A DNA stretch of 64,000 bases from an uncultured Ruminococcus sp. (GTDB lineage: Bacteria; Bacillota; Clostridia; Oscillospirales; Acutalibacteraceae). The DNA is taken from assembly GCA_902794395.1 (NCBI GenBank), contig CADBHB010000001.1, positions 91,289 to 155,288 of the forward strand, read 5' to 3'. Of the stretch, positions 263 to 35,109 are shown in pieces (the stretch's first letter is position 1; the number at the start of each line of letters is the position of its first letter). Below the pieces are notes generated by a model. The model saw only the letters and a program-made list of their open reading frames with translations, searched no databases and was not told the DNA's origin. The position numbers and the translations under genes were made by a program.

Positions 263-3200
263 ATGATGAAAAAATCCGTTTCCGTGCTGTTGGCTGTAAT
301 GATGGTCCTCGGCTTGCTGCCGATGGGCGTCCTTCACGCTTTTGCCGAAGGCGACGGAGGGATAACGGCTGACTACACGCTTAGCGAAGGTCAGCGTACT
401 ATGGTGACCATCAGCGAGGGCGGCGGTATGAAGTACTGCGCCTTTACCCCCGCGGAGGACGGCGTATACATTTTTGAGTCATTCTCGGACGGGGATACTT
501 ACGCTGTCCTTTTCGACGAGAACGGCAACACTATTGACGAGCAGGATGAGGGCGGCGACGGCAATAACTTTTTGCTTGAGTCGGTTTTGTCGACTGATGC
601 CACCTATTATCTGGGAGTGAGATACTATTATTCCAACGATACCGGCTCGTTCGAGGTCTCGGCGAATATGAAGCCGCACGCAACGTCTATGAGCATAGAC
701 CCCGACGAATTAACGGGATATGTTAACATGACAAGGAATCTCAGCGTTTCATTCCAGCCTGATAACGCTGTTGAGGAAACCGTGACTTGGCAAAGCTCAA
801 ACGACACAGTCGCTTCGGTAGACAGCAGCGGCATGGTGTCTTTGAACGCGGCCGGCACGGCGACTGTTACCGCGACCTCACAGAGAGGGCTTACCGCCTC
901 CTGCACCGTGACGGTGGCGGACTATGAAACGATACTGGCGGGCGATACCAAGCAGGTTTTGATCGACGAAGAGGGCAAAGAGGTTTATTTCAAATTCGTT
1001 CCTTCCGAGTCCGGCTCATACAGCTTTTATTCGCTGGGAAATTATGATACCTACGGTTATTTGTACGACGATTCTCTCAACCTTCTGGAAAGCAGCGATG
1101 ACGGCTCCGACAGAAATTTCCGCATAGAATACGACTTGATCGCGGGCGAGACCTATTTTTTGTCGGCGAAGCTTTACGACAGCGAAGGAACAGGCGACTT
1201 CTCGGTAAAGCTTACCAAGAATGTTGCCGCCACCGCGATAGAGATAAATCAGGGCAACGCTGTCACGGGTTATGTCAACACCGATATTAACTTTGGGATC
1301 ACCGCTGTTCCGGACGGAGCCTTGGTGGGTACAGTCAGCTGGAGCAGCAGCAACACGGACGCGGTGTCGATAGACGAGCTTTACGGTTACGCTCATCTGG
1401 AGGCGACGGGCACAGCGGTCATCACCGCAGAGTCCTCAAGCGGCTTGATAGCGACTTGTACGGTAACTGTTATCGATTATGAGCAGATACTTGCCGGAAC
1501 GCCGAAAACCGTGAGCATCACAGACGGCGTTTCCCAAGCGATGTATAAATTTGTTCCCCAAAGCAGCGGCAACTATATTTTCAAATCGACGGGCAATTGG
1601 GGTCCCACCGGTTATTTGTATGATGAGAATATGAGCATGCTTTACGGCTGCTCCGGTGGCGGCGAAGGCGATAACTTCAAGTTCTCCCATTATCTTTACG
1701 AGGGAGAGGTATATTTATTTGAAACCAAGCTGCAAGACAGCGGCAACGGCACCTATCAGGTTAGCGTGACCGCCGCGCCGAGCGCTACCTCGGTGGCGTT
1801 CAATGAGGGCGAAAGCTTCACCGGCTATGTCAACACCACGAAAACGCTCTCCCTTACATTCTTTCCCGAGGATGCTTCCGAGGTCGAGGGCGAGCTTAGC
1901 TCCTCTAATCCTTCCGTGGTATCTGTAAGCGATATGACGCTGCACTTGAACAGCGTAGGCACCGCGGACGTCACCTTCACCGCGGCAAACGGTCTTAGCT
2001 GCGTGTGCCACGTTACTGTTATTGATGCTGAGCTGTTGACCGTGGGCGAAAGCAAGAGCGTTGTTATCTCGACCGCCGGAGATGAAAAGATATTTAAGGT
2101 GACTCCCTCCGAGGATATGTGCGTCGAGTTCTGTTCCGCGGGCGATGCAGATACCTATGGCACCTTGTGCAACGCGAGTATGGACGTGCTTGCGAACGAC
2201 GACGACAGCGGCGACAACAACAATTTCCTCTTGCAATATGAACTTGAGGGCGGCAAGACCTATTATTTTAGGGCGCAGTTATATGGCAATAAAACGGGCG
2301 CCTTCATGCTTGTCTCGCGTCAGATCACTTACGCGGAAAGCATAGCTGTCACACAGGGGACCGCAATAGAGACCTACATGATGCAGTTTCCCGACCTGAC
2401 TGTTACCGCAACGCCTTCCGACTCTTACGTGGGCACTTTGACATGGACCAGCTCGGACAACAGTGTGGTGACGGTCGACGATTACGGTGACCTCAGTTCC
2501 GTCGGTCTCGGCACCGCGACTGTCACCGTCACCAACGACAGAGGTCTGAGCGCCTCCGTCACCGTGACCGTGAAGGATTTTGAGAATATTACCGAGGGGC
2601 AGACCGAAACGGCGAGCATCCTCTATCCCGGGCACTGCATCGTCTACCGCTTTACGCCCGACAACGATTATCATTACGCATTTTATTCCGAGGGAAATCT
2701 GTATACCTACGGCAAGATTCTTGACAGCGACGGCGATCTTTTGGTGGATGATTACGGGAGCAACGGCAGGAATTTCCGTATTTCCGCCGCGATGGAGAGC
2801 GGACATACCTATTATCTGGTCACGGGTATATACAGCGGCAAAACAACAGGCAGCTTTACTGTCGGCGTACAACAGACGGTATATACGTCTGAGCTTGAGA
2901 TCCTGACTCTGCCCGACAGACAGACTTATGTCACGGGCTTTGTGGGCAGGTATGCCGAATTTGAAGGGCTGAGCGCGCGCATCACCCGCTCGGACGGAGA
3001 GGTCATAAACTGGACCTACGGCGACAGCCGCAACATCTGCGGAGATTATTTGGAGATTATCATCAGCGGCAGCACCGTTTCGCTGAGCTGCGGCGAAGGC
3101 AGCGACAGCTTCCAACTGACGCTTACAGAAAACCCCGTTGCGGATCTGACTGTTACTCAGGGGACTTCCGCGACCCTGACAGAGAATTACGACGGAGAAA

Positions 3201-5197
3201 TGGACAACTTTGCAGATCCTCCGTTCTTCCGTTATGACTACGGAGCGCTTAGAAGAGACATCGAGGTGCTCATAACCTATAAGGACGGCACACAGAGGAC
3301 CGCGCACGCGGGAGATGTAGTGGACGGCTATGAGATCGAGGTCAGTGATTACCAATCGGCACAACCGTGGACTCCGGGAGAGAACCCGATAACAGTGTCA
3401 TATCTCGGCTTCAGCGACGAGACGACCATCACCGTAGAGGAGAGCAACGTTACGGGCATCGAGATCATCGACGCTCCGGAAATAACCTTGATCGAATACG
3501 CGGACGGATATATTAATCAGCGCTACGACCAGGATTCCGGAGAATATGTGGACTACTTCTATTACCGTCTTGCAAATCTGGACGAAATTAAGGTGCGCAT
3601 CCACTTTAAGGACGGCTCATCAACAGACGCCTATGTATATCAAACCGTAAACGACTGCATGATCGAAGCCGATTCAAACCAGTATAACAATCCCTATGTG
3701 CTCGGCAGCGACAATGAGGTCGTGGTGTCATACATGGGCAAGACCGCTGTGCTGTACGTCACCGTGGTCGAGAATCCCGTTGTCGGCATCACGGTGACAA
3801 GGAACACCTCGGCGACGCTGATAGAAAACAGCGACGGATACTGGACAAAGAATTACGATCCCGATACCGATGAATACACTAGTGACTTCTTCAACTACAC
3901 GCTTCCCGATATGAGCGACGCTGAAATCACCATCTTCTATTCCGACGGCACCTCAAGAACGGCGAATGTAGGCGATTACGTGGACGGCTACTATGTGGAG
4001 GCTTACTCCGACCAGTACGAAAATCACTGGTCGCTCGGCGAAAACACCGTTACTGTCAGCTATATGGGCGTGGAAGCTACGATGCCGGTCACTGTAGTCG
4101 AAACACCGGCGGCGACCATCACCATCAACAGCGCTCCCGTCAGAGAATATGTTTACAACGACTGCGTCTACGGCGAACCCGATTACTTCACCCCTGACGA
4201 TATGACGGGGCTCAGCTTTACCGTCGGCTTCAAGAACGGTACATCCAAGACCTACACATACGCGGACATAGACGAAAACGGCATGATAGACGGACATCCG
4301 TATTCTGCGAAAGCGGTCAATAATGTTCAGACCGTCGGCAGCAACGCCGTGACTTTCAGCTATCTGGGCGTGGAGGCTACCTACAATGTCACGGTAAAGG
4401 ATAGCAGCGTGTCTGCTCTGGAGATAGTAAGGCTTCCCGATAAGCCCGTGGTTTCACGTTATTATTTGCCCGACTGGCGCGGCATGCAGGTCAAGTTCAC
4501 CAAGAAGAACGGCAGTACCGAAACCGTGACCATCAGCGACGCTAATATGGTGTTCGGCTTCTGCGGTTACTACGGCTTCTATGTCGGCTTTGAGTATGAC
4601 GGCACTATGGCGGTCATTTGCAGGACCCATTACAATGACTCAACAGGCTTTGCTGTGTTTTACGCGGGGCTCAGCGCCGAAATAGGGGGATTGACCTACC
4701 GCGAGGACAAGGTAGTTACCGACGTACAGATAGAGGACTTCAGCATTACCGGCGAGAATATGCTGGTCAAGGCGACCTTCGCGGACGGCACCAATGAGAA
4801 CATCCGCCTTACCGACATCAGGGACTGCAGATCCGGCTGGACAAAAGACTGGATTATTTGCAGAGCCATGACCGATAAGGGCATGCTCTATGTTCAGATA
4901 TCCGTCAAAGATAAACCTCAGCAAAAGGTTGTTGTATTTGACCTCGAAACGTGCGTGGCGGGCTCCGGCTCTGAAATGCTGCTGGGCGACGTTACAGGCG
5001 ACGGTGCGGTCACGATTGACGACGTGACAAGGCTGCAAAGCTATTTAACAGAGTACAGCGTGCCTAACGTTTCGCGCATCCGCAGCTGCGGCGACGTCAA
5101 CGGCGACGGAAGGATCGACGTCAATGACATCACCGACATCCAGCGCTATTTGGCTGAGGTCGAAGCTCCGGCGGGCATCGGCGCTCCTATAGCATAA
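263..5197 (+). CDS. Large secreted modular surface protein: signal peptide, alternating PPC-like and Ig-like (Big_2-type) modules, further Ig-like repeats, C-terminal dockerin
   Basis: MKK...FAE signal peptide. Repeated VTWxSSNxxVAxVDxxGxV...GTATVT motifs alternate with YxFxPxxxGxYxFxSxGxxDTYxxLxD...DD..NF modules. C-terminal duplicated Ca-binding loops GDVTGDGAVTIDD and GDVNGDGRIDVND. Confidence 0.9.
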   Translation: MMKKSVSVLLAVMMVLGLLPMGVLHAFAEGDGGITADYTLSEGQRTMVTISEGGGMKYCAFTPAEDGVYIFESFSDGDTYAVLFDENGNTIDEQDEGGDGNNFLLESVLSTDATYYLGVRYYYSNDTGSFEVSANMKPHATSMSIDPDELTGYVNMTRNLSVSFQPDNAVEETVTWQSSNDTVASVDSSGMVSLNAAGTATVTATSQRGLTASCTVTVADYETILAGDTKQVLIDEEGKEVYFKFVPSESGSYSFYSLGNYDTYGYLYDDSLNLLESSDDGSDRNFRIEYDLIAGETYFLSAKLYDSEGTGDFSVKLTKNVAATAIEINQGNAVTGYVNTDINFGITAVPDGALVGTVSWSSSNTDAVSIDELYGYAHLEATGTAVITAESSSGLIATCTVTVIDYEQILAGTPKTVSITDGVSQAMYKFVPQSSGNYIFKSTGNWGPTGYLYDENMSMLYGCSGGGEGDNFKFSHYLYEGEVYLFETKLQDSGNGTYQVSVTAAPSATSVAFNEGESFTGYVNTTKTLSLTFFPEDASEVEGELSSSNPSVVSVSDMTLHLNSVGTADVTFTAANGLSCVCHVTVIDAELLTVGESKSVVISTAGDEKIFKVTPSEDMCVEFCSAGDADTYGTLCNASMDVLANDDDSGDNNNFLLQYELEGGKTYYFRAQLYGNKTGAFMLVSRQITYAESIAVTQGTAIETYMMQFPDLTVTATPSDSYVGTLTWTSSDNSVVTVDDYGDLSSVGLGTATVTVTNDRGLSASVTVTVKDFENITEGQTETASILYPGHCIVYRFTPDNDYHYAFYSEGNLYTYGKILDSDGDLLVDDYGSNGRNFRISAAMESGHTYYLVTGIYSGKTTGSFTVGVQQTVYTSELEILTLPDRQTYVTGFVGRYAEFEGLSARITRSDGEVINWTYGDSRNICGDYLEIIISGSTVSLSCGEGSDSFQLTLTENPVADLTVTQGTSATLTENYDGEMDNFADPPFFRYDYGALRRDIEVLITYKDGTQRTAHAGDVVDGYEIEVSDYQSAQPWTPGENPITVSYLGFSDETTITVEESNVTGIEIIDAPEITLIEYADGYINQRYDQDSGEYVDYFYYRLANLDEIKVRIHFKDGSSTDAYVYQTVNDCMIEADSNQYNNPYVLGSDNEVVVSYMGKTAVLYVTVVENPVVGITVTRNTSATLIENSDGYWTKNYDPDTDEYTSDFFNYTLPDMSDAEITIFYSDGTSRTANVGDYVDGYYVEAYSDQYENHWSLGENTVTVSYMGVEATMPVTVVETPAATITINSAPVREYVYNDCVYGEPDYFTPDDMTGLSFTVGFKNGTSKTYTYADIDENGMIDGHPYSAKAVNNVQTVGSNAVTFSYLGVEATYNVTVKDSSVSALEIVRLPDKPVVSRYYLPDWRGMQVKFTKKNGSTETVTISDANMVFGFCGYYGFYVGFEYDGTMAVICRTHYNDSTGFAVFYAGLSAEIGGLTYREDKVVTDVQIEDFSITGENMLVKATFADGTNENIRLTDIRDCRSGWTKDWIICRAMTDKGMLYVQISVKDKPQQKVVVFDLETCVAGSGSEMLLGDVTGDGAVTIDDVTRLQSYLTEYSVPNVSRIRSCGDVNGDGRIDVNDITDIQRYLAEVEAPAGIGAPIA

Positions 5198-19304: not shown

Positions 19305-19319
19305 TGTTTTTGGGAAAGC

Positions 19320-19373
19320 TTCACAGAAGCTTGCGGTTTTCTTCATTTAGCTTTCACAAACAGGCTTTATGAT
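19320..19373 (+). promoter_or_regulatory. Putative OmpR/PhoB-type boxes plus -10 element
   Basis: TTCACA (19320), TTCATT (19342) and TTCACA (19353) on an 11-bp register; TATGAT at 19368-19373, 9 bp after the last box; no separate consensus -35. Confidence 0.5.
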
Positions 19374-19379
19374 ATAAGC

Positions 19380-19472
19380 ACAGTAAAGATAACAGTGCTT
19401 TCTACATTTTCTTAAAAGATTTTTTCATAGATGTTCCTCAGATAAAAACCGACCGCACGGTCGGTTTTTATT
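19380..19472 (+). ncRNA. Candidate csRNA-like trans-acting small RNA
   Basis: Promoter upstream; TTTTTTCATAGATGTTCCTC tract (anti-start codon plus anti-SD) at 19420-19439; perfect terminator TAAAAACCGACC-GCAC-GGTCGGTTTTTA at 19443-19470. Confidence 0.5.
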
Positions 19473-19486
19473 GTTTGGTGAGCAAA

Positions 19487-20401
19487 ATGTATTATTATTC
19501 TTTAAACGAATATTTGAAAAAGACCTTCGGCGAAAAGGTATATAAGCTGTCGCTTGACGGCGGCATGACCTGTCCCAACCGTGACGGCACGCTGGACACG
19601 CGCGGCTGCATCTTTTGCAGCGCCGGAGGCTCGGGCGAGTTCGCGGCGCGGCGCGAGCTATCCGTGACGGCGCAGCTTGAGCAGGCAAAGCAAAAGATCG
19701 CTGCAAAAACGGACTGCCGCAGGTTCATCGCGTATTTTCAGCCCTTTACCAACACCTACGCGCCCGTTAGCTGTCTGCGCAGACTTTTCTGCGAGGCGAT
19801 CGCGCCCGATGAGGTGGCGGCGCTGTCGATAGCTACAAGACCGGACTGCCTGGGCGATGATGTCATCGCGCTGCTCGACGAGCTTAACAAAATAAAGCCG
19901 GTTTGGGTGGAGCTGGGCTTGCAGACTATCCGCCCCGACAGCGCGGAGTATATCCGGCGCGGCTACGAGCTGCCCGTGTATGACGCGGCGGCAAAGCGGC
20001 TCAGGGACATCGGGGTGCAGGTCATCACGCACATCATCCTCGGCTTGCCGCGAGAGAGCCGCGAGGATATGCTGAAAAGCGTGCGCTACGCGGGCGAGAG
20101 GAGCGACGGTATCAAGTTGCAGCTGCTTCACGTGCTCAAGGGCACGGACTTGGAAAAGGACTATGCGGCGGGGCAGTTTGAGGTGATGGAGCGCGGTGAG
20201 TACATCGACCTGCTCTGCGACTGCATAGAAGCGCTGCCGCCCGGGGTGGTGATACACCGCCTCACCGGCGACGGCGACAAGAAGCTTTTGGTCGCGCCCT
20301 TGTGGAGCGGTGACAAAAAGCGGGTGCTCAATGAAATAAACAAAGCCCTGCGCGACAGAAACGTCGTACAGGGCAGGAAATATGAACGCAGCTTCGGTTA
20401 G
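19487..20401 (+). CDS. TIGR01212/YhcC-family radical SAM protein
   Basis: GGMTCPNRDGT...GCIFCS, YFQPFTNTYA, IATRPDCL, VELGLQT, VIHRLTGDG. Confidence 0.92.
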   Translation: MYYYSLNEYLKKTFGEKVYKLSLDGGMTCPNRDGTLDTRGCIFCSAGGSGEFAARRELSVTAQLEQAKQKIAAKTDCRRFIAYFQPFTNTYAPVSCLRRLFCEAIAPDEVAALSIATRPDCLGDDVIALLDELNKIKPVWVELGLQTIRPDSAEYIRRGYELPVYDAAAKRLRDIGVQVITHIILGLPRESREDMLKSVRYAGERSDGIKLQLLHVLKGTDLEKDYAAGQFEVMERGEYIDLLCDCIEALPPGVVIHRLTGDGDKKLLVAPLWSGDKKRVLNEINKALRDRNVVQGRKYERSFG

Positions 20402-21159
20402 TCGGAGCTGTTTTTCTTTTGTTTGCCGCGCAGCAGAAAGAAGCCTATCAGCGCTGCCGCTGCGGCGCCCGAGCAGCAGAGGACGATGACGGGGGTGAGG
20501 CGGTCGGCGTCCTTTTGGCTGACAGTGTTTAGCGTGCCCATATCGTGTATCGGCTCGGTGTTTTGACCATCGGCAGGATTGCCCTTTGAAGACCGCGCTT
20601 TCGGAGCAGAGCCGTGCTTGTCAGCGGAGGTCGTCTTTGGCTCGGTCGCCTTGGGGTGGGCGGCGGATTTGGACGAAGTGTCCGTTCTGCCCACACTGTC
20701 GCTCGCTCTCTGAGTTACAGTGACGCTGCCCGCAGTGCAGCTTCCTACATCAAGCGCTTGAACGTCCGCGTCAACGCAGTCCTCAACGGTGAAGCCGACC
20801 TCGCTGCTGCCCTCGGCTATGGTTTTGAATTCCAGCGTAAAAATCGGAGCTTGTCGGGTTATCTCGGCGCCGTAGGTATCCAGAAAGGAAAGCCGCACAC
20901 GTGACTCGTTTGTGTCGCTGACCACCTGAGCGTCGCCGCAGGGTTTGGCGTCGCGAAATTCCAGCACAGAGGGGTCGTAGGTGAATTCAAAGGTGGCGGC
21001 GCATAGCTTGCGGTCGCACTGTGCTCTGACCTCGATGTCAACAAGGCGGTTGTTTTTGCACTCAATCTCACTGAGCGAAAAGGACACGGCGCACTCGGCG
21101 CGGACGGGAAGGAGGGAGAGAAACATAAACAGCGTAATAACGGCGATGATTCTTTTCAT
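20398..21159 (-). CDS. Membrane-anchored single-cohesin protein
   Basis: Signal peptide; cohesin-like beta-sandwich with FEFTYDPSVLEF and IFTLEFK; S/T/K-rich linker; C-terminal TM helix and basic tail (RGKQKK); no canonical LPxTG. Confidence 0.75.
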   Translation of the reverse strand: MKRIIAVITLFMFLSLLPVRAECAVSFSLSEIECKNNRLVDIEVRAQCDRKLCAATFEFTYDPSVLEFRDAKPCGDAQVVSDTNESRVRLSFLDTYGAEITRQAPIFTLEFKTIAEGSSEVGFTVEDCVDADVQALDVGSCTAGSVTVTQRASDSVGRTDTSSKSAAHPKATEPKTTSADKHGSAPKARSSKGNPADGQNTEPIHDMGTLNTVSQKDADRLTPVIVLCCSGAAAAALIGFFLLRGKQKKNSSD

Positions 21160-21188
21160 ATGTTGCTCTCCTTTCGTGATTTGATTCT

Positions 21189-21217
21189 ATTGTACGACAA
21201 ATAAGCTTGAAAGGCAA
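21189..21217 (-). promoter_or_regulatory. Promoter of the cohesin gene
   Basis: TTGCCT-17 bp-TACAAT on the minus strand. Confidence 0.6.
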
Positions 21218-21258
21218 TACGTTTAGTGATATTATTTTGTTTTTCCGTTAAGGATGGG

Positions 21259-21391
21259 TTTGGCGGAGAGAAGGTGCTGCGGCAAAGGGAACGACGCACT
21301 GCGCCGCTTGATGGGGCGGGGGAGTCAAGGGTTCATCAACGCTCTCCCTCAAATCCCCTTTACTCCGTTTTTTCAAAACAAAAAAGCACCC
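21259..21391. repeat. tRNA-Ser-derived mini-element, copy A (short form)
   Basis: Begins with TTTGGCGGAGAGAAGG (identical to 34015-34030); shares AACGACGCACTGCGCCGCTTG and GGGGGAGTCAAGGGTTCATCAACGCTCTCCCTCAAA with 33712-33810; ends TCCCC...AAAACAAAAAAGCACCC as at 33961-33998. Confidence 0.9.
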
Positions 21392-21482
21392 GCGAAAAGC
21401 AAAAAGCCAAACCGCCCGACATTTCTGTCAGGCGGCGTTTTTGCGCTCGTTTATTCTGTTATCGGCTTCACAGCTAACGCAA

Positions 21483-21516
21483 AGCCCCGGCAAAACGCGT
21501 CGCGCTCGCCGGGGCT
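21483..21516 (-). terminator. Terminator-like hairpin after the LRR-dockerin gene
   Basis: AGCCCCGGC...GCCGGGGCT 9-bp stem; a second hairpin lies at 21412-21435. Confidence 0.6.
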
Positions 21517-21524
21517 GTATTGGG

Positions 21525-24500
21525 TTATGCTGTTGGCTGTTTTCCTAAGACTATGCCATCGAATTCCGCGAGATATTGCAGTAAAAGGGTCACGTCGGCT
21601 ATGGTCACTTCGCCGTCGCCGTTGGCGTCGGCATTGAAGATAGCAGCGCCCGTAAGGGGTTCTATCTCGGCGATATGGCGCTGGATGGCGGTGACGTCGA
21701 GGACGTTTATCTTGCTGTCGCCGTTCGCGTCGCCGATCAGCAGGGGAACAAAGTCTATTTCGTTTGCGTCGGCGTAGGTTTGCGCGGCTGAGCCTGCAAA
21801 GCCGTAGATCGTAAAGCCCTCAACCGTTACTTCGTCTGAGTTACGGCGTTCATAGCCGAACGCATTTGTTCCGATACTCGTGACCGTTATCGGTATAAGC
21901 ACGTTTGTCATAGAGGTGCCAAAGAATGCGTAGTTGCCGATGGTGGTGATTGTATCGGGGATCACGATCTTCTCTAAGCCGGTGCAGGAGGAGAAAAGAC
22001 TCGCCGCGATTTGGGTACTGCCCGCCTCGAAATGCACGGTTTTGAGCTGTTCGCAGCCGGAGAAGGGACCGTACTGTGCGAAGTCGCCGGCATTGGTGAG
22101 GGTCTTGGGAATGGTGATCTCGGTGATCGGACAGCCGGAAAATGCGGAATTGCCGAGCCTTTGCAGCGACGACGGCAGGGTGACCGTGGTGAGATCAGCG
22201 CAATCTGTGAAAGCCATGCCCTCAATATCGGTCACGGTGTCGGGGAAGCTGATCTCCGTGATACCGGTGCTTCTGAACATCTCGCCGGGGATCCGTGTGG
22301 AGCCGTTGGCGAAGTTGACGGTACGCAGCGCGGTACAACCCTCAAACGCATGATTTGCGCTGCCGCCGGTACCGCAGACGGTGGACGGCAGGTTGACCGT
22401 CTCCAGCGCGGTGCAGTTGCGGAAGGAATAGTTGCCAAGGCTTTTGACGCCCTCGGGAATGGTCAGCGTCTCCAGCGCGGAGCAGCCGTCAAAGGCGTAG
22501 CCTTCAATGGCGGTGATATTGCCGTGGAGCGTGAGGCTGCTCAGCGAGGTGCAGTTTTTGAAGGTGTTGTCTTTAATGATTGTCACACCGGCGGGCGCGG
22601 TGAAGGATTGCAGCGAGGAGCAGTTTGCAAACACGCTGTTCTCAATGGTGGTCATGGCGTCGGGCAGGGTGATGGTTTCAAGCGCCGAACAGCCGTAGAA
22701 GGTCGTGTTATAAAGCGTCGTTACGCCGTCGGGGATCGTCAGACTTTGCAGCGAGGAGCAGTTTTGGAACACGTAGTAGCCGATTTCCTCTAAATCGTCA
22801 GGTAGAGTGATGGCGGTCATGTTGGAGCACTCCGCGAACGCGTCGCGTCCGATCGTCGTCACGGTGTCGGGCAGCTCAATGGTCTGAATACCGGTGCAGC
22901 GGTGGAAGAGATAAGCGGGAATGGCTGTTCTGCCCGCGGTGAAGGTGACGTCGTTCAAGCTGTCGCAGTAGGAGAACGGACCGTAAACGCCGTCTACCGT
23001 CATGTTCGCCGGAATGTTGACGGAGGTCAGCGCGGTGCAGCTTGCGAACGCTTCACTGCCTAAGGTGGTCAGCGTTTCGGGCAGGGTGACAGACGGAAGT
23101 GCTTGACAACGGGCAAAAGCGTTGCTGCCAATGGTCTGCACATTCGTGCTCATCGTCAGATTTTGCAGATTCTCACAGCCGTAGAAGGCGTAGCTTCCGA
23201 TTTCGGTGACGGAGTTGGGAAGGTATACGCTGCTGAGGCTCTTGCAGTTGTAGCACGCGTAGTCGCCGATGGTCGTCAGCGAATTGGCGTTGTTCAGACC
23301 GAACAGGGAACGGAGGTTCTCAAAATTATAAAACGCGCGGGAGCCGATAGCGGTGAGAGTAGAGGGAAGGACGACGTAGCAGCCGTCTTCACTGTTGCCC
23401 GTGCAGTTTTCAAAGAGGTGCGCGGGGATGGTGGTGACGCCGTCGGCAATGGCAACGGAGTACAGCTTTGTCAAGCCGTAGAACGGCTCGCGAGTGCCGC
23501 AGGAGGTCAGGGTCTTGCCGATTTTGACGGTCGTTAATTCCGTCAGACGGCTGAACGCGGAATCACCGATATAGGTGACGCCGTCCCTGACGGTCAGTTT
23601 GGTGATCTGCCGCGGATTGTCGTCGTCGTCCTTGCCGAGATCAACATACATCCACGGCGGATTCTGGCTGTAGTAATCTCCCATAGCGCCGCTGCCGTAG
23701 ATGATCAGCTCCGCCTTGGGAATATCGACCGCCCATTTGACCTCGCCGGTATTGCCGGTGGCAAGAGCGGCGATGAAGGTAAAGCCGTTTTCGGTCGCGT
23801 AGGTTTCGGCGGCGGATTCCGCTTTGCCGCGAATGACAAAGCCGCTTTGCTTGACGGTCGCGTGGTTTTGATCGACGTAATAGCCGATGGAGTATTGTCC
23901 GATGCTCGTGACGCTCGGGGGAATGGTCACGCTGTTGATATTCGCGCCGAGGAACGCGTTTGCGCCGATCGATTGCAGCGTAAAGGGCAGACTCACTGCT
24001 ATCAGCGGACAGCCGACGAACGCGCCCGCCTCAATCGTCGTCAAGCCCTCGTTGAAGGTAACGGCGGTCAGGCTTACGCAGTTGCCGAACGCCGAATCGG
24101 GGATCGTGGTGACGCCGTCGGGAATGGTGACGTCGGTCAGCGCCGTGCCGCCGAAGGCGTATGTTCCGATGTTGCTGAGCGCAGCGGGCAGGCTAAGGGA
24201 TGTGATCTGCTCGCAGTAGCGGAAGGCGTTCGTGCCGATGGCTGTCACGGTGTCGGGCAGATTTACGTCGGTCAGGTTAGGCAGGTCATAGAAGCAGAAA
24301 TCGCCGATCTTGGTCACGCCATTCTGTACAACGACAGCGGTGAGCACATCACGCCACGCGTGCCACGGCGCCGTGGTAGAAGCGGTGTAATCGGCTGTTT
24401 GGGTGCCGCCGTAAATAGTCAGCACGTCGGTGTTGCGGTTGTACTTCCATTGGCAGTCGCCCGTGGTGCCGTTGAGCGCGACAAAGGTGAAGCCATTTTC

Positions 24501-27146
24501 GATAGCGTAGGTCTCGGCGGCGGTGCCGGAGCTGCCGTAAATGGTGAAGCCCTCTGTTTTGTGTAAGTGGTTGAGTTCGTTATAGCCGAAGGCGTCTTCG
24601 CCGATCGCGGTCACGCTGTCCGGAATGTAGACCTCCGTCAGGTTTGGACACCAAAGAAAAGCGTGTTCTCCGATAGAGGTCACGCCCTCATTCAAAGCGA
24701 CGCTTGTCAGTTGAGCGCAGTTCATAAACGCAAAGTCTCCGATGGTTTCTACGCTGTCGGGAAGTGTCAGCTCGGTGATATCGGTGAAAGCAAACGCCTC
24801 CTCTCCTATGTTTTTCAGCCCGCTGCCGAGGGTGACACTTTGAAGATACTTGTCACTGGCAAACGCCATTTTTCCGATGCTCTCTACACTGTCGGGGATG
24901 GTGATTTCGGTCAGCTTGCCGTCCGGTACCGTAATGCCGCAAAGGCTAAATGCCAATCTGCCGATGGTTTGCACGGTGTTGCCGATGGACAGCTCCGTAA
25001 CTTGAGAGAAATCACAAAACGAGAACTCTCCGACGTGCGTTACGCCGTCCTCGATCACGATCTTGGTGGTCTGATCACAAAAACCTCTCCACGGATCGAA
25101 ATAGGTATATGTATCGGTCCCTTGATTATATTCACAGACATAATCCGCCATCGCGCCCTCGCCGCTGATGGTCAGGGTGCCGGTGTAGGGGTCGAACTTC
25201 CATTTGCAGTCGCCCGTTGTACCGCCCGCTGCAACGAAGGGGATTTCGTATTCGTTGGCGTAGGTCTCGGCGGCGGAGCCGGGAACACCGTAGATGGTGA
25301 AGCCGTCGATTTTAACAAGCTCATGGTTTGAATCGGATTTAAAGCCAAACGCGTGGTCAATGATCTCTGTAACGCTTTCGGGGATATAGACCTTCGTAAA
25401 ACCGCACCCGAGAAACGCTTCGGTGCGTATTTCCGCGGGACATTCGCCGATGACAACGCTTGTCAGATTATGACAGCCAACAAACGCTTGCAGATCGACC
25501 CACTCCAAGCTGTCGGGAAGGGTGATCTCGGTCAGACCATAACAAGCGCTAAAAGCACCGGTTCCGATCCTTTTCAGATTTTTTCCAAACGTAATGCTTT
25601 GGAGCTCGGCATCTTTCGTGAATGAATATGCTTCCAATGCCTCCACACTGTCCGGCAGAACCACCTCGGTGAGCTCGCGGAGCAAATAAAACGAGAACTC
25701 TCCGACCGTCTGCACATTATTGCCGATGGTTAGCTCCGTAACATTATAAAACTTATAAAACGAACCGTTGCCGACGTGCGTCACGCCGTCCTCGATCAAG
25801 ATCGTGGTCGTTATCTCACTGTACTCCGCCCACGGAGTGGCGTTTACCATTACATGATCGTATGGGGTTTCATAATCCGCCATAGCGCCCTCGCCGCTGA
25901 CGGTCAGGGTTTGGGTGTAAGGGTCGAACGCCCACAGGCAGTCGCCGGTGGTGCCGGTGGTGGTAAAGAAGGTAAAGCCGTTGTTGTCGGCGTAGGTCGC
26001 GGCGGCGGTGCCGGATTCGCCGTAGACAACGAAATCGTCGACCGGCGTCATCTGCTCCGGCACCTGGCTGTTATACTCCGTATAGCCAAAGGCGTAGTCG
26101 CCGACAAACGTCACGCTTGAGGGGATAATGACGGAAGTGAGTGCGGTGTCCTTGAACGCGCCGATGCCGACCGTCTGCAAGCCGCTGTATAGCGTGATGC
26201 TGCTCAGTGCGTCGCAGCGGGCAAAGGCGGCGGTGCCGATCTCATGCAGGCTCGCGGGGAAATTGACGGTGGTCAGCGCCGTGCAAAGGGAAAACGCCAA
26301 TTGACCGATCTGTGTCAGGGTGTCGGGTATGGTGACCTCCTCCAACTGATTACAGCCGAAAAATGCGCCGTTGCTGACGGTGGTCAAGCCCTCCGAGATC
26401 ACGAGCTTTTTGACAAAGTGAGTGAGAGCCATGTCACGCGCCCAAAACTGCGGCAGGTCCATCGCGCAGTTGCCGTTGCCTTTGGGCGAGATGGTCAGGG
26501 TGTCGGTCGTCGTGTCGAACGACCAGTGGCAGTTGTCTGTTTCGCCCCAAAACTCATTCACGGTAAAGGCGAAATGCATAAAAGCTTTGTTGTAGGTGTA
26601 CTCAAAGCCGGCGGTGGAGTCGCTGTAGATCGTAAAGCCCGAAACAAAGTTCGTTATTTCGCCGTCTGCGCCCTCATAAGCGAACGCGTATTCGCCGATC
26701 TCCAAATCGCAGGGCTGATACGTCAGCGTGACGCTCGCCAAGCCGCAGTTGAGAAAGGCACAGTCGCCGATAGAATCAAGCGGCGTGATGAAAATGACGT
26801 CACAAAGCGAAGTGCAGCCCTCAAAGGCATAGCTGCCGATGCGCGTGATGCTGCCGCCGATGGTGATGGTATTGATGCTGTTGCGGTAAGCTGCCCAGGG
26901 TGTCTCGTAGCCGGAGTTGTAGTCCTGCAGCTCGCCCGTGCCGCCGATGGTCAGCTCGCCGGTGGCGTTTTCAAAGTACCACGTGACGTCGCCGACGGTG
27001 CCGCTGTCGTCGCCCACGGGGGCACTGTCAGCCGGTGCGCCGACCGCTTCGGTTTCGTCCGCTTCCGCTGCGAACGCTGTCATGGGCATGACAGACAGCA
27101 CCAGCAAAGCGGCAAGCAGGATAGATAATAGCTTTTTCATGTTCAT
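21525..27146 (-). CDS. BspA/TpLRR (LRR_5) surface protein with C-terminal dockerin
   Basis: Signal peptide; dozens of IGxxAFxxCxxLxxIxIPxxV repeats; recurring GTTGDCxW...TLTISG and FTIYGxxGxAAETYA capping modules; dockerin loops GDANGDSKINVLD and ADANGDGEVTIAD. Confidence 0.95.
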   Translation of the reverse strand: MNMKKLLSILLAALLVLSVMPMTAFAAEADETEAVGAPADSAPVGDDSGTVGDVTWYFENATGELTIGGTGELQDYNSGYETPWAAYRNSINTITIGGSITRIGSYAFEGCTSLCDVIFITPLDSIGDCAFLNCGLASVTLTYQPCDLEIGEYAFAYEGADGEITNFVSGFTIYSDSTAGFEYTYNKAFMHFAFTVNEFWGETDNCHWSFDTTTDTLTISPKGNGNCAMDLPQFWARDMALTHFVKKLVISEGLTTVSNGAFFGCNQLEEVTIPDTLTQIGQLAFSLCTALTTVNFPASLHEIGTAAFARCDALSSITLYSGLQTVGIGAFKDTALTSVIIPSSVTFVGDYAFGYTEYNSQVPEQMTPVDDFVVYGESGTAAATYADNNGFTFFTTTGTTGDCLWAFDPYTQTLTVSGEGAMADYETPYDHVMVNATPWAEYSEITTTILIEDGVTHVGNGSFYKFYNVTELTIGNNVQTVGEFSFYLLRELTEVVLPDSVEALEAYSFTKDAELQSITFGKNLKRIGTGAFSACYGLTEITLPDSLEWVDLQAFVGCHNLTSVVIGECPAEIRTEAFLGCGFTKVYIPESVTEIIDHAFGFKSDSNHELVKIDGFTIYGVPGSAAETYANEYEIPFVAAGGTTGDCKWKFDPYTGTLTISGEGAMADYVCEYNQGTDTYTYFDPWRGFCDQTTKIVIEDGVTHVGEFSFCDFSQVTELSIGNTVQTIGRLAFSLCGITVPDGKLTEITIPDSVESIGKMAFASDKYLQSVTLGSGLKNIGEEAFAFTDITELTLPDSVETIGDFAFMNCAQLTSVALNEGVTSIGEHAFLWCPNLTEVYIPDSVTAIGEDAFGYNELNHLHKTEGFTIYGSSGTAAETYAIENGFTFVALNGTTGDCQWKYNRNTDVLTIYGGTQTADYTASTTAPWHAWRDVLTAVVVQNGVTKIGDFCFYDLPNLTDVNLPDTVTAIGTNAFRYCEQITSLSLPAALSNIGTYAFGGTALTDVTIPDGVTTIPDSAFGNCVSLTAVTFNEGLTTIEAGAFVGCPLIAVSLPFTLQSIGANAFLGANINSVTIPPSVTSIGQYSIGYYVDQNHATVKQSGFVIRGKAESAAETYATENGFTFIAALATGNTGEVKWAVDIPKAELIIYGSGAMGDYYSQNPPWMYVDLGKDDDDNPRQITKLTVRDGVTYIGDSAFSRLTELTTVKIGKTLTSCGTREPFYGLTKLYSVAIADGVTTIPAHLFENCTGNSEDGCYVVLPSTLTAIGSRAFYNFENLRSLFGLNNANSLTTIGDYACYNCKSLSSVYLPNSVTEIGSYAFYGCENLQNLTMSTNVQTIGSNAFARCQALPSVTLPETLTTLGSEAFASCTALTSVNIPANMTVDGVYGPFSYCDSLNDVTFTAGRTAIPAYLFHRCTGIQTIELPDTVTTIGRDAFAECSNMTAITLPDDLEEIGYYVFQNCSSLQSLTIPDGVTTLYNTTFYGCSALETITLPDAMTTIENSVFANCSSLQSFTAPAGVTIIKDNTFKNCTSLSSLTLHGNITAIEGYAFDGCSALETLTIPEGVKSLGNYSFRNCTALETVNLPSTVCGTGGSANHAFEGCTALRTVNFANGSTRIPGEMFRSTGITEISFPDTVTDIEGMAFTDCADLTTVTLPSSLQRLGNSAFSGCPITEITIPKTLTNAGDFAQYGPFSGCEQLKTVHFEAGSTQIAASLFSSCTGLEKIVIPDTITTIGNYAFFGTSMTNVLIPITVTSIGTNAFGYERRNSDEVTVEGFTIYGFAGSAAQTYADANEIDFVPLLIGDANGDSKINVLDVTAIQRHIAEIEPLTGAAIFNADANGDGEVTIADVTLLLQYLAEFDGIVLGKQPTA

Positions 27147-34273: not shown

Positions 34274-34308
34274 AATAATTGTGATTATTTTAAAGGAGAT
34301 GTAAATCT

Positions 34309-35109
34309 ATGAAAAAAGTATTATCCGCGATTCTTGCGGGTGTTATGGTCTGCACCATGGCGTTTGCCTTTGCGGGCTGTGGCAGCAGCAAGGCAAAGAA
34401 AATCACCAAGGTAGACGATCTTAAGGGCGCTATCATCGGCGTGCAGTCCGGCACCACCGGCGACAACATCGCTACCGAATACGAGAAGGACGGCGCTACC
34501 GTTAACCGCTACAACAAGGGCGCTGATGCGGTAGTAGCTCTGAAGAACGGAAAGATCGACTGTGTTATCATCGACAGCGAGCCCGCTAAGGCGTTTGTAG
34601 CCAACAACAGCGGTCTTAAGATCCTCGACACCGCCGACGACGAGAACTTCGCCAAAGAGGAGTACGCCATCTGCATAGCCAAGGGCAACGAGGCGCTGCT
34701 TGAGAAGTTCAACACCGCTCTCGGTGAGCTTAAGGAAGACGGCACCGTTTCCAAGATCATCAACCACTTCATCGGCGACGAGGAGTACACCTACTCCACT
34801 CCCGAAGGCACCCAGTATCCCAACGGCGAGCTGCACATGGCTACCAACGCTGAGTTTGAGCCTTATGAATACATCGCCGACAATAAGATCGTAGGCATCG
34901 ACCCCATGATCGCTACCGCCATCTGCGACAAGCTCGGCTACAAGCTGGTTATCGACAACATGGAGTTTGAGTCTATCATCGGTTCCATTCAGACCGGCAA
35001 GGCTGATTTCGGTATGGCGGGCATGACCGTCACCGAAGAGAGAAAGAAGAGCGTCAGCTTCACCGACACCTACGCGGAAGCCGCTCAGGTCATCATCGTC
35101 AAGAAATAA
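34309..35109 (+). CDS. Polar amino-acid ABC transporter substrate-binding lipoprotein
   Basis: Lipobox FAFAGC; IGVQSGTTG, GKIDCVIIDSEPA, ATNAEFEPYEY, VSFTDTYA. Confidence 0.92.
   Translation: MKKVLSAILAGVMVCTMAFAFAGCGSSKAKKITKVDDLKGAIIGVQSGTTGDNIATEYEKDGATVNRYNKGADAVVALKNGKIDCVIIDSEPAKAFVANNSGLKILDTADDENFAKEEYAICIAKGNEALLEKFNTALGELKEDGTVSKIINHFIGDEEYTYSTPEGTQYPNGELHMATNAEFEPYEYIADNKIVGIDPMIATAICDKLGYKLVIDNMEFESIIGSIQTGKADFGMAGMTVTEERKKSVSFTDTYAEAAQVIIVKK

Follow-up and report, generated by a model that had tools for sequence, protein, structure and literature searches.

To understand what lies upstream of mnmL in this Ruminococcus sp. window (the whole 64000-nucleotide stretch of DNA that was analysed), we asked whether the locus is a gene in its own right, what controls it and what its product acts on. 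The preliminary description had proposed a small RNA (sRNA) resembling the streptococcal csRNAs, placed under an OmpR-type promoter and with a predicted target in the window. The reading that we favour, at a probability of about 0.6 and judged from comparative sequence analysis, is that positions 19380–19474 of the + strand are the gene of a trans-acting sRNA that inhibits translation initiation and belongs to a secretion-stress regulon like those of CssRS and CiaRH. The features of the locus are as follows.

19320–19325, + strand: promoter box 1, TTCACA, the distal one of four direct repeats in 11-bp phase; TTCAC(A) in 30 homologous promoters.
19331–19336, + strand: promoter box 2, TTGCGG, degenerate, in 11-bp phase; TTTaC or TTTGC in relatives.
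19342–19347, + strand: promoter box 3, TTCATT; consensus cTTCAaA in 30 sRNA promoters.
19353–19358, + strand: promoter box 4, TTCACA, in place of a −35 and 9 bp before the −10; TCACA invariant in 30 homologs.
19368–19373, + strand: −10 hexamer TATGAT (TAnnAT); T1, A2, A5 and T6 kept across homologs.
19379–19389, + strand: start region CACAGTAAAGA; CACAG in 29 of 30 homologs.
19380–19474, + strand: predicted sRNA of ~95 nt; the window copy scores 92.4 bits with covariance model R1.
19390–19419, + strand: variable A/U-rich body, scrambled in length and sequence (30–55% column identity among homologs).
19420–19439, + strand: seed TTTTTTCATAGATGTTCCTC (as RNA UUUUUUCAUAGAUGUUCCUC), made up of anti-(AAAAAA), anti-AUG, spacer and anti-Shine–Dalgarno.
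19444–19476, + strand: intrinsic terminator, A5-CCGACC/GCAC/GGTCGG-U5 and then a U-rich tail, from a terminator scan and folding.
19487–20401, + strand: mnmL/ytqA, a tRNA-modification radical SAM gene (TIGR01212, 319 bits; Pfam Radical_SAM), outside the RNA.

Reading of the promoter confirmed the boxes previously noted on an 11-bp register at 19320, 19342 and 19353, with TATGAT 9 bp further downstream, and added the degenerate fourth box at 19331. A sigma-70 scan found no −35 partner for this −10 on the + strand, as expected of a promoter of this type, which would be activator-dependent. Box 4 with its flank, (T)TTTCACA, is equal to TTTTCACA, the canonical CssR box published for B. subtilis (PMC6749698).

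Covariance model R1 detected the element in 53 of the 151 species genomes of the genus sample (rumen and gut 'Ruminococcus sp.' of the Acutalibacteraceae), and a promoter-plus-start pattern was matched in 52 of the same 151 genomes against one match for the reversed control. Thirty homologous copies were aligned in detail. All of them showed the four-box, 11-bp-phased TTCACA promoter (consensus TTCAC-, TTT-C, TTCAaA and TCACA), a TAnnAT −10, a scrambled body, a near-invariant tract and a covarying terminator, and this comparison of homologous promoters supported the earlier proposal of a direct-repeat, OmpR-type promoter without a −35. On these alignments, the element is more than a chance occurrence and is conserved together with its promoter, seed and terminator. 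Among 150 other genera of the family, the model gave only four weak matches, none of them with the boxes; exact-pattern matches in unrelated phyla were discarded as chance start regions. The recommended search for relatives thus returned homologs within the genus (53/151) and no paralogs: genomes usually have a single copy of this sRNA type, and BLAST found no other in the source genome.

The 5′ end of the predicted RNA was set at the A of the conserved CACAG, from its spacing to the −10. A similar start region, CA(C/A)A(G/C).AAAG, follows the same promoter at htrA and at a gene for a Usp-like protein, so it is probably a promoter or initial-transcript feature rather than one specific to the sRNA. 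Within the body, a 5′ hairpin was predicted in only 11 of the 30 homologs and is not general. The body is followed by a nearly invariant tract of 18–20 nt, UUUUUCAUAGAUGUUCCU(C/U), and then by the covarying terminator; across 30 species, identity is 90% or more in approximately 18 contiguous columns, with variable flanks, and the mean predicted unpaired probability of the seed is 0.64. This mostly unpaired tract is, as far as alignment and folding indicate, the only conserved internal element of the RNA. The order of an unpaired anti-Shine–Dalgarno/anti-AUG tract and then a terminator, put forward on the window alone, is thus borne out by the 30 homologs and their folds. In the window, the tract is the exact reverse complement of a ribosome-binding region plus ATG-AAA-AAA, as had been stated. 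The preliminary description had also made the sRNA depend on conservation of the anti-Shine–Dalgarno tract in relatives, and the tract is kept (at least 90% identity over ~18 nt).

The perfect terminator reported at 19443–19470 was confirmed by reading and by a terminator scan, with a stem of 19444–19454/19459–19469, a GCAC loop and a T-run extending to approximately 19476. In the 30 sequences, 92% of the cells of the helix were paired, four of ten pairs were changed on both sides, and the covariation exceeded that of all 500 shuffles. The element possesses its own conserved promoter and terminator, and no ORF is conserved on either strand; this comparative evidence supports an independent sRNA gene on the + strand, as first suggested. 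An opposite-strand reading, in which the conserved sequence would provide the ribosome-binding site and start for a micro-ORF, MKKSFKKM (minus strand, 19402–19428), encoding a small protein or leader peptide, is very improbable. Although GAGGA-N6-ATG on that strand is a textbook start region, the frame ranges from 3 to more than 41 codons in the 30 homologs, with two cases of MKK followed directly by a stop; the terminator hairpin lies directly upstream on the minus strand and leaves no space for a promoter, and the + strand carries both flanking genes as well as the conserved promoter. We rejected the micro-ORF because nothing past MKK is conserved in the 30 homologs.

The position of mnmL required a closer look. 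Its start lies 11–17 nt past the terminator, and 27 of the 30 homologous loci have it immediately after the sRNA and in the same orientation. A cis effect is possible, since these copies adjoin mnmL without space for a separate promoter, and with such a gap in the window mnmL would have to be reached by read-through from upstream. The element might accordingly be a cis-acting leader or attenuator of mnmL, in which the stress promoter mainly serves mnmL, by way of a terminator that is leaky or regulated, and yields the short RNA as a by-product. We consider this quite improbable. Three diverged copies (G016, G024 and G030) at unrelated loci retain promoter, seed and terminator, and another sRNA under the same promoter is unlinked to mnmL. 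The seed is not complementary to the start region of mnmL (GGUGAGCAAAAUGUAUUAU), no structure competes with the terminator in the predicted fold, and an Rfam search gave no cis-regulatory family. Furthermore, conservation is highest in an unpaired anti-start tract and not in a fold resembling a ligand pocket.

Next, we considered which start regions a trans-acting sRNA of this kind might recognize. The two matches proposed within the window are both present in the sequence: ATCTATGAAAAAA at 34305–34317 is the perfect 13-nt complement of 19420–19432, and ATGAAAAAATC at 266–276 is an 11-nt complement of 19418–19428. The 13-mer ATCTATGAAAAAA is found at four start codons in the source genome, and for 11-mers complementary to the RNA the genomic count is well over 100; both complementarities as such are weak evidence. 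For the amino-acid ABC binding protein, the 13-nt match at 34305 is real, but the extra ATCT that extends it to 13 nt is absent from all 15 of the orthologous binding-protein genes with readable starts, and the specific target is not supported; the lipoprotein gene, starting at 34309, was dropped as a target since no extended match is kept in its orthologs. The 11-nt match at 266, at the start of a 1644-aa surface protein, exists at chance level and does not support that gene as a target. Over the whole genome, every gene differed from the seed complement by at least 4 mismatches in 22, and target specificity is therefore not derivable from complementarity.

A genus-wide scan allowing at most three mismatches to the seed complement returned generic start regions only, approximately 10 per genome compared with 3–4 for the reversed control, and duplex energies at start sites were only ~2 kcal/mol better than those of shuffled seeds. 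The seed complement is a consensus start region of exported-protein genes. ATGAAAAA begins 20% of signal-peptide-like ORFs compared with 2.3% of other ORFs. Exported proteins were twofold enriched in the top 5% of predicted duplexes, an enrichment that is partly built into the seed sequence.

One feature of the seed is left unexplained by generic pairing with ribosome-binding sites, namely the spacer AGAUGU, which is invariant in ~25 species, although the start-region spacers of candidate targets vary. This invariance, the resemblance of the UUCCU tract to the 16S 3′ end, and the fact that the genome and genus-wide scans found no strong conserved mRNA partner would fit a genuine sRNA of the same regulon that has one or a few specific partners, be it a particular mRNA bound away from start regions, a protein or the ribosome. 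We regard such a dedicated partner as unlikely. The spacer is altered in more distant homologs (AAAUUU, AUAAUUU and AGAUUUU) with CAU and UCCU kept, in keeping with generic anti-start pairing, and variants with two anti-start modules exist among the homologs, in which the entire module has been duplicated. The design is also that of the csRNAs, which are thought to pair with start regions and so block access of the ribosome (PMC3091779).

Having favoured a trans-acting, anti-start sRNA, we analysed what else shares its promoter. When a promoter matrix was scanned over the 2.2-Mb source genome (4.4 million positions, noise up to 6.7), htrA (52.3) and the sRNA (50.0) scored far above all else, followed by a second non-coding RNA (20.7), the Usp-like gene (13.6) and the upstream region of an OmpR-type operon (8.8). 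The htrA product is a membrane-anchored protein of 572 aa with Trypsin_2 and PDZ domains. Wherever a genus genome had DNA upstream of htrA, the four-box promoter stood there (29 of 29); in these htrA promoters (n=29) the position of box 2 is a clear TTTCAa and that of box 3 is TTCATA. The proximal box is TTTTCACT at htrA and (T)TTTCACA at the sRNA. From this shared promoter, we infer that the sRNA and htrA are co-regulated by one two-component system. Membership of a two-component-type regulon, as first proposed, is thus supported by comparison, and the regulon includes htrA, as does that of CiaRH. The second conserved small RNA, which is C-rich and lies on contig C14, has the same promoter at all 12 loci inspected and is found 1.7–5.5 kb from a regulator of the type encoded on C6 (see below) in six genomes. 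Neither sRNA reached the threshold of any Rfam family. Regular-expression matches at C2:23600, C5:107155, C36:6231 and C9:60882 were dropped, being unremarkable with the full matrix.

The source genome has only six OmpR-type two-component operons. The fifth-best of the 4.4 million matrix positions lies upstream of one of them, the OmpR-type RR/HK pair G000:C6:24431–26630. The C6 regulator is kept in 40 of 41 genomes, as is the htrA promoter, and its orthologs mostly have aACATA-N5-TCACA-N9-TAnnnT directly upstream; NCBIfam gave only generic OmpR-family equivalog matches, all below cut-off. The C6 pair is, on these sequence features, the candidate regulator of this promoter set, which probably includes its own operon; the assignment combines a weak matrix match (8.8, near the noise of 6.7) with context. 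The likely signal would be secretion or envelope protein-folding stress, because the box equals the B. subtilis CssR box. In B. subtilis, CssRS acts as the inducer of htrA and htrB; in S. pneumoniae, both htrA and the csRNAs are under the control of CiaRH (PMC12826053, PMC8186281, PMC3091779).

The anatomy described above would stand equally if the regulator were not CssR-like but another OmpR/PhoB-family protein, such as that of the paralogous pair on C14 or a PhoP-like protein, with phosphate or cell-wall stress, for example, as a different signal. The regulators of C14 and C6 share 55% identity, and the C14 operon has a similar four-box promoter with TTCCAC boxes. The boxes of the sRNA promoter also resemble Pho boxes, which are TT(A/T/C)ACA repeats in B. 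subtilis and CTGTCAT-N4-CTGTCAT, 10 bp before the −10, in E. coli. This possibility is nevertheless rather unlikely in our estimation, since htrA is the conserved core target in every genome examined, which is the hallmark of CssRS and CiaRH and not of Pho regulons, and no box cluster precedes phosphate genes among the top matrix matches. In addition, the C6 regulator is kept in 40/41 genomes, whereas a C14-like paralog at that level of identity is found in the source genome alone.

How far does the sRNA resemble the known systems? In common with the csRNAs of the streptococcal CiaRH regulon, it would be a short RNA with an intrinsic terminator, and both have an unpaired tract in which a U-run is followed by an anti-AUG (CAU) and then an anti-Shine–Dalgarno CCUC/UCCU (PMC3091779, PMC8186281). 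Both also have a promoter of hexamer direct repeats in 11-bp phase, ending 9–10 bp before the −10 and without a −35 (PMC3091779, PMC8186281). The HtrA protease is in the same regulon in both cases, and there is more than one sRNA per regulon. No Hfq was found in the source genome. The csRNA hosts are not known to have it either.

The csRNA likeness previously claimed stood for the design (promoter repeats, anti-start tract and terminator) and failed for family membership: with the Rfam csRNA model RF02379, whose gathering score is 57, the element reached 26.2 bits (E = 0.44, aligned over the full model length), and the CiaR site TTTAAG-N5-TTTAAG is absent upstream of the −10, where the boxes are TTCACA, TTGCGG, TTCATT and TTCACA, four of the TTCACA type. 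In csRNAs, two stem-loops flank the unpaired region; here the 3′ terminator covaries, and a 5′ stem-loop is predicted in only 11 of 30 copies. There is usually one copy of the type per genome here, compared with about five siblings in S. pneumoniae, and the host is a genus of the Oscillospirales (Clostridia) rather than Streptococcus. The likeness is most simply explained by convergence.

The CssRS regulon of B. subtilis (htrA, htrB and cssRS) likewise has repeated TTTTCACA-type boxes before htrA-type protease genes. As in CssRS, the candidate OmpR-family regulator has as its partner a kinase with two membrane segments plus an extracytoplasmic loop, and an HtrA-family protease gene is the core target, with the top matrix match. 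Autoregulation may also occur here, judging from the upstream motif. Unlike in CssRS, the two-component genes are not adjacent to htrA in the source genome. No small RNA was described for the CssRS regulon in the literature searched. In Gram-negative bacteria, the sigma-E (MicA, RybB and MicL) and Cpx (CpxQ) envelope-stress responses couple the DegP/HtrA protease with sRNAs that reduce exported-protein synthesis, using an alternative sigma factor or 3′UTR processing, Hfq and target-specific seeds. The logic is the same as that proposed here, without any sequence relation, and the seed here is a generic anti-start tract.

Taken together, our results suggest the following mechanism. A response regulator would drive the sRNA from four TTCACA-type boxes that replace the −35 and end 9 bp before the TAnnAT −10, and the intrinsic terminator would close the ~95-nt RNA. 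Its seed, antisense to the Shine–Dalgarno sequence, spacer, AUG and AAAAA, would pair with translation-initiation regions, preferably those of ORFs starting with Met-Lys-Lys, mostly lipoproteins and secreted proteins, and by blocking 30S binding would lower the synthesis of exported proteins. The regulon would comprise the sRNA, the membrane-anchored HtrA, the Usp-like protein, the other conserved small RNA and, in all probability, the operon of the regulator, so that under stress HtrA would remove misfolded exported proteins and the sRNA would cut their supply. With its anti-start core and a four-box promoter that it shares with the HtrA protease, the sRNA may be regarded as a clostridial counterpart of the streptococcal csRNAs. 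A fuller proposal, for which we would claim slightly less than even odds, is that a CssRS-like system has an RNA arm, consisting of the anti-start RNA and the C-rich RNA on C14, that throttles initiation on Met-Lys-Lys exported-protein mRNAs alongside HtrA when extracellular folding fails.

If true, CssRS-type systems would gain their first described sRNA output, tied to a box for which the literature searched describes none, and the arrangement would be an independent, convergent re-invention of both the streptococcal csRNA design and the Gram-negative sigma-E/Cpx logic. Envelope-stress responses in which a protease and sRNAs together limit exported-protein synthesis are textbook knowledge in Gram-negative bacteria. 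In Gram-positive bacteria we know of them essentially only from streptococcal CiaRH, beside which the present system would be another case, far removed in phylogeny and apparently convergent. The proposal has testable parts, in the four-box promoter and in a small regulon of htrA, the Usp-like gene, two sRNAs and a candidate regulator. The 18-nt seed, with a U-run and CAU selective for Met-Lys-Lys starts, could be used as a compact and generic tool for knocking down exported proteins in Firmicutes. The hosts are abundant, little-studied fibre and starch degraders of the rumen and gut that secrete very large surface proteins, and it is in these organisms that such an RNA may hold back exported-protein synthesis.

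The intergenic region 19305–19486, flanked on both sides by plus-strand genes, holds the predicted ~95-nt small RNA gene (sRNA; 19380–19474, plus strand), and the phased boxes, TATGAT, A/U-rich stretch, anti-start tract and terminator from which the preliminary description had assembled it were all found in place. The features of the locus are as follows.

Upstream of the region, plus strand: 229-aa ORF without a family match
19320, 19342 and 19353, plus strand: promoter boxes TTCACA, TTCATT and TTCACA, in an 11-bp register
19331, plus strand: degenerate fourth box TTGCGG, added here to the three described first
19368, plus strand: −10 element TATGAT, 9 bp beyond the last box
Between promoter and seed, plus strand: A/U-rich body, read in the sequence
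19420–19439, plus strand: seed TTTTTTCATAGATGTTCCTC, read in the sequence
Beyond the seed, plus strand: terminator A5-CCGACC-GCAC-GGTCGG-T5, then a T-rich tail, from a consensus scan
Downstream of the region, plus strand: mnmL/ytqA, tRNA-modification radical SAM gene (TIGR01212, 319 bits)

A consensus scan found no −35/−10 pair on the plus strand of the locus, as expected of an activator-dependent promoter. Folding of the sRNA alone gave a z-score of −3.2, owing to the terminator. Accessibility of the seed is moderate (mean predicted unpaired probability 0.64). A palindrome at 19316–19332, AAGCTTCACAGAAGCTT then GCGGTTTTCT, was flagged as terminator-like and overlaps the first promoter box; it could be the end of the upstream gene's transcript and is not kept in relatives.

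BLAST against relatives revealed that the whole unit recurs within the genus. A covariance model built on ten copies detected the sRNA in 53 of the 151 species-representative genomes of the genus, with one copy each and rarely two. When the 30 best copies were aligned, the four phased boxes, the 9-bp spacer, TAnnAT, 5 nt and CACAG were all kept in the 75 nt upstream, the following 25–45 nt were scrambled in both sequence and length, and ~18 nt, UUUUUCAUAGAU(G/A/U)UUCCU, showed at least 90% identity. The terminator stem carried compensatory substitutions (92% of cells paired, four of ten pairs changed on both sides), and none of 500 shuffles or of the slid controls reached its covariation. The bare pattern TCACA-N9-TAnnAT-N5-CACAG occurred in 52 of the 151 genomes, whereas the reversed control matched once, and added approximately nine genomes missed by the covariance model; their variant RNAs contain two anti-start modules, or combine a CUCCUCC tract with a CAU...CUCC one. 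Some 40% of the species sampled are thus predicted to carry the family, a lower bound since many of the genomes are incomplete MAGs, and such counts across related genomes are non-independent observations. Matching public contigs came from "Ruminococcus sp." (e.g. YE282 and JE7B6), "Ruminococcaceae bacterium P7" and "Acutalibacteraceae bacterium", mostly of rumen or gut origin. In 150 other genera of the family, only four weak matches were obtained, all without boxes.

The locus could also be read on the minus strand as a micro-ORF. Its start region is perfect, yet its length ranged from 3 to >41 codons in the 30 homologs with nothing kept past Met-Lys-Lys, and on that strand the terminator hairpin immediately precedes the start region. 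The micro-ORF reading was rejected. Two further matches were noted. At locus L228 (G210:C122), from a different genus of the same family, CUUUUUCAUAAAUCUCCCUUCUUU and a terminator directly follow the stop codon of an HtrA-type-looking PDZ C-terminus, possibly an anti-start element derived from an htrA 3′UTR. At L028 (G034:C407:1126–1150), the −10/start region, TATTATATAATCACAGTAAAGATAA, is matched at 92% over 25 nt; this match lacks upstream boxes and precedes a tRNA-Ile(UAU)-Glu-Asp cluster by ~45 nt.

A position matrix derived from the 30 upstream regions was scanned over the 2.2-Mb genome and gave three outliers besides the sRNA itself. After extension of the matrix with htrA promoters, the ranking was as follows, with noise at scores of ≤6.7.

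Rank 1, score 52.3: htrA
Rank 2, score 50.0: the sRNA of the window
Rank 3, score 20.7: non-coding stretch C14:13708–13857
Rank 4, score 13.6: 140-aa Usp-like gene on contig C16
Rank 5, score 8.8: upstream of an OmpR-type regulator/kinase pair on contig C6

The htrA product (572 aa) combines a membrane anchor with Trypsin_2 and PDZ domains. The htrA ortholog is preceded by four TTCAnn boxes at 11-bp phase, 9 bp and TATTAT in all 29 genus genomes with upstream DNA, including those where the sRNA was not found. Both promoter type and regulator thus go back to the ancestor of the genus, and the sRNA was added in part of it. Because the start-proximal CACAG(U)AAAGA recurs in similar form past the htrA and Usp-like promoters, we assign it to the promoter or the initial transcript and do not regard it as an sRNA motif. 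Approximately 240 nt after the Usp-like gene (G000:C16, contig start region, minus strand), the 3′UTR contains TTTTCATAGATTTCAC ... CCATCTCCTTTCTT and then a strong terminator. This tract resembles the sRNA seed and could be a 3′UTR-derived relative; the G012 ortholog (L026) is without it.

The third-ranked stretch, outside the window, appears to encode a second small RNA.

G000:C14:13708–13857 (loci L280–L291), minus strand: small RNA of ~150 nt under the same four-box promoter

Its predicted fold comprises a 5′ hairpin, unpaired AUUGUUCUACCCUCCUCAAU, a second hairpin with compensatory changes, unpaired UACCCCUCAUUUUUUAC and a terminator; two hairpins covary, and the unpaired tracts are CCCUCCUC and CCCCUCAUUUUUU. 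It is 72–91% identical in 39 of 61 genus genomes, matched no Rfam family, and often lies near C6-type two-component genes or a second HtrA paralog (1–3 kb downstream of the latter in four genomes).

Whether the window's element is instead a cis leader of mnmL deserves attention, as 27 of the 30 copies lie directly upstream of mnmL. In the window the mnmL start is only 11–17 nt past the terminator (19470–19489). A separate mnmL promoter will not fit there, and mnmL must depend to some extent on read-through, either from the sRNA promoter or from the upstream operon. Nevertheless, an independent, trans-acting gene is favoured on four counts: three copies, the most diverged ones, keep promoter, seed and terminator although they stand at unrelated loci; the seed lacks a match to the start region of mnmL; the predicted fold contains no helix competing with the terminator; and the second RNA under the same promoter type is unlinked to mnmL. 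We put at roughly 0.85 the probability that the locus is a genuine sRNA gene with its own promoter, belonging to an htrA regulon.

Only six OmpR-type regulators were found in the genome. In the C6 pair (G000:C6:24431–26630), a regulator of 225 aa is partnered with a kinase that has two membrane segments, a ~170-aa extracytoplasmic loop and HisKA and HATPase domains; four TCA boxes in 11-bp phase and a weak −10 element lie in front of the pair. Orthologs of the regulator (72–93% identity, 40 of 41 genomes) mostly have aACATA-N5-TCACA-N9-TAnnnT right upstream. This regulator equals the htrA promoter in breadth of conservation, and one of its type lies 1.7–5.5 kb from the second sRNA in six genomes. 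We infer that the C6 pair regulates the sRNA/htrA regulon, and the assignment stays at that level because its matrix score is near noise, a paralog on C14 is 55% identical and no specific NCBIfam name applies. Four TCCACA/TTCCAC/TTCCCA boxes at G000:C14:53340–53400 (minus strand), in 11-bp phase and followed after ~10 bp by TATGAT, precede an ApbE-like/548-aa/regulator/kinase operon; the geometry is that of the sRNA promoter with a different box, presumably the site of the paralogous regulator.

In regulon terms the closest known system is CssRS, which in Bacillus subtilis induces htrA and htrB upon misfolding of secreted proteins (PMC12826053). The sRNA promoter box (T)TTTCACA equals the canonical CssR box TTTTCACA as PMC6749698 quotes it from Darmon et al. 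2002. In eight genomes of the genus (G009, G019, G021, G023, G025, G026, G061 and G063), most without an sRNA match, a second HtrA paralog lies 2.5–3.5 kb from another OmpR-type regulator (43–45% identical with that of C6), recalling cssRS beside htrB. Full-text literature searches returned no sRNA member of a CssRS regulon, and the literature searched held no sRNA of this kind in Ruminococcus. The second sRNA brings the regulon closer to that of CiaRH in Streptococcus pneumoniae, which includes htrA and in which five of 15 promoters, the strongest, drive sRNAs (PMC8186281).

Like these csRNAs (PMC3091779), the sRNA has a direct-repeat promoter ending 9–10 bp before the −10 element, an unpaired U-run/CAU/anti-Shine–Dalgarno tract, a terminator and, judging from its promoter, co-regulation with htrA. 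The Rfam csRNA model aligned over its full length and matched UUUUUUCAUA exactly; however, the sRNA scored 26.2 bits where the threshold is 57, it has no CiaR box (TTTAAG-N5-TTTAAG), the csRNA 5′ stem–loop is not general in the homologs, and the host is not a streptococcus. Of the interpretation proposed earlier on the csRNA pattern, the sRNA, the OmpR-type promoter and the regulon membership are supported, whereas membership of the csRNAs fails on the Rfam model and the CiaR box. The sRNA is csRNA-like in design, yet not a csRNA, and convergence accounts for the likeness most simply.

The seed is the complement of GAGGAACAUCUAUGAAAAAA. Among rough gene calls for this genome (1626 Shine–Dalgarno-supported starts, 75% of the genome covered), ATGAAAAA stood at the start of 20% of signal-peptide-like ORFs compared with 2.3% of others. 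Start regions of signal-like genes formed the stronger predicted duplexes with the seed (−14.5 kcal/mol, against −13.0), these genes were 2-fold enriched in the best 5% of duplexes (38% against 19%), and start regions were predicted to bind the real seed ~2 kcal/mol better than shuffled seeds. These enrichments indicate what the sRNA is built to pair with, not actual pairing, and much of them follows from the seed sequence. The genome contains no near-perfect seed site, the best having four mismatches in 22, and Hfq was not found in it.

The two targets named earlier, the binding-protein start at 34305–34317 (13 nt) and the surface-protein start at 266–276 (11 nt), are exactly complementary but were not supported as specific partners. 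Three further start codons carry the 13-mer ATCTATGAAAAAA of 34305 as well, and in 15 binding-protein orthologs with readable starts ATCT is replaced by TTTTC, TTTCT, TTTTT, AAAAA and others, even in species with an identical seed; generic pairing with this start region is possible. Generic pairing does not explain the spacer AGAUGU, invariant among closer relatives, which leaves room for a specific partner; none accounting for it was found.

In the full model, which we consider somewhat probable, the sRNA would repress the translation start of exported proteins by anti-start pairing under a CssRS-like system; its start site, signal, regulator and repression are all what we infer from sequence. 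Large leucine-rich-repeat surface proteins with dockerin (20398–27146 and 263–5197) adjoin a membrane cohesin protein in the window, and their Met-(Asn-Met)-Lys-Lys starts mark them as the kind of heavy secretion load that such a regulon would police.
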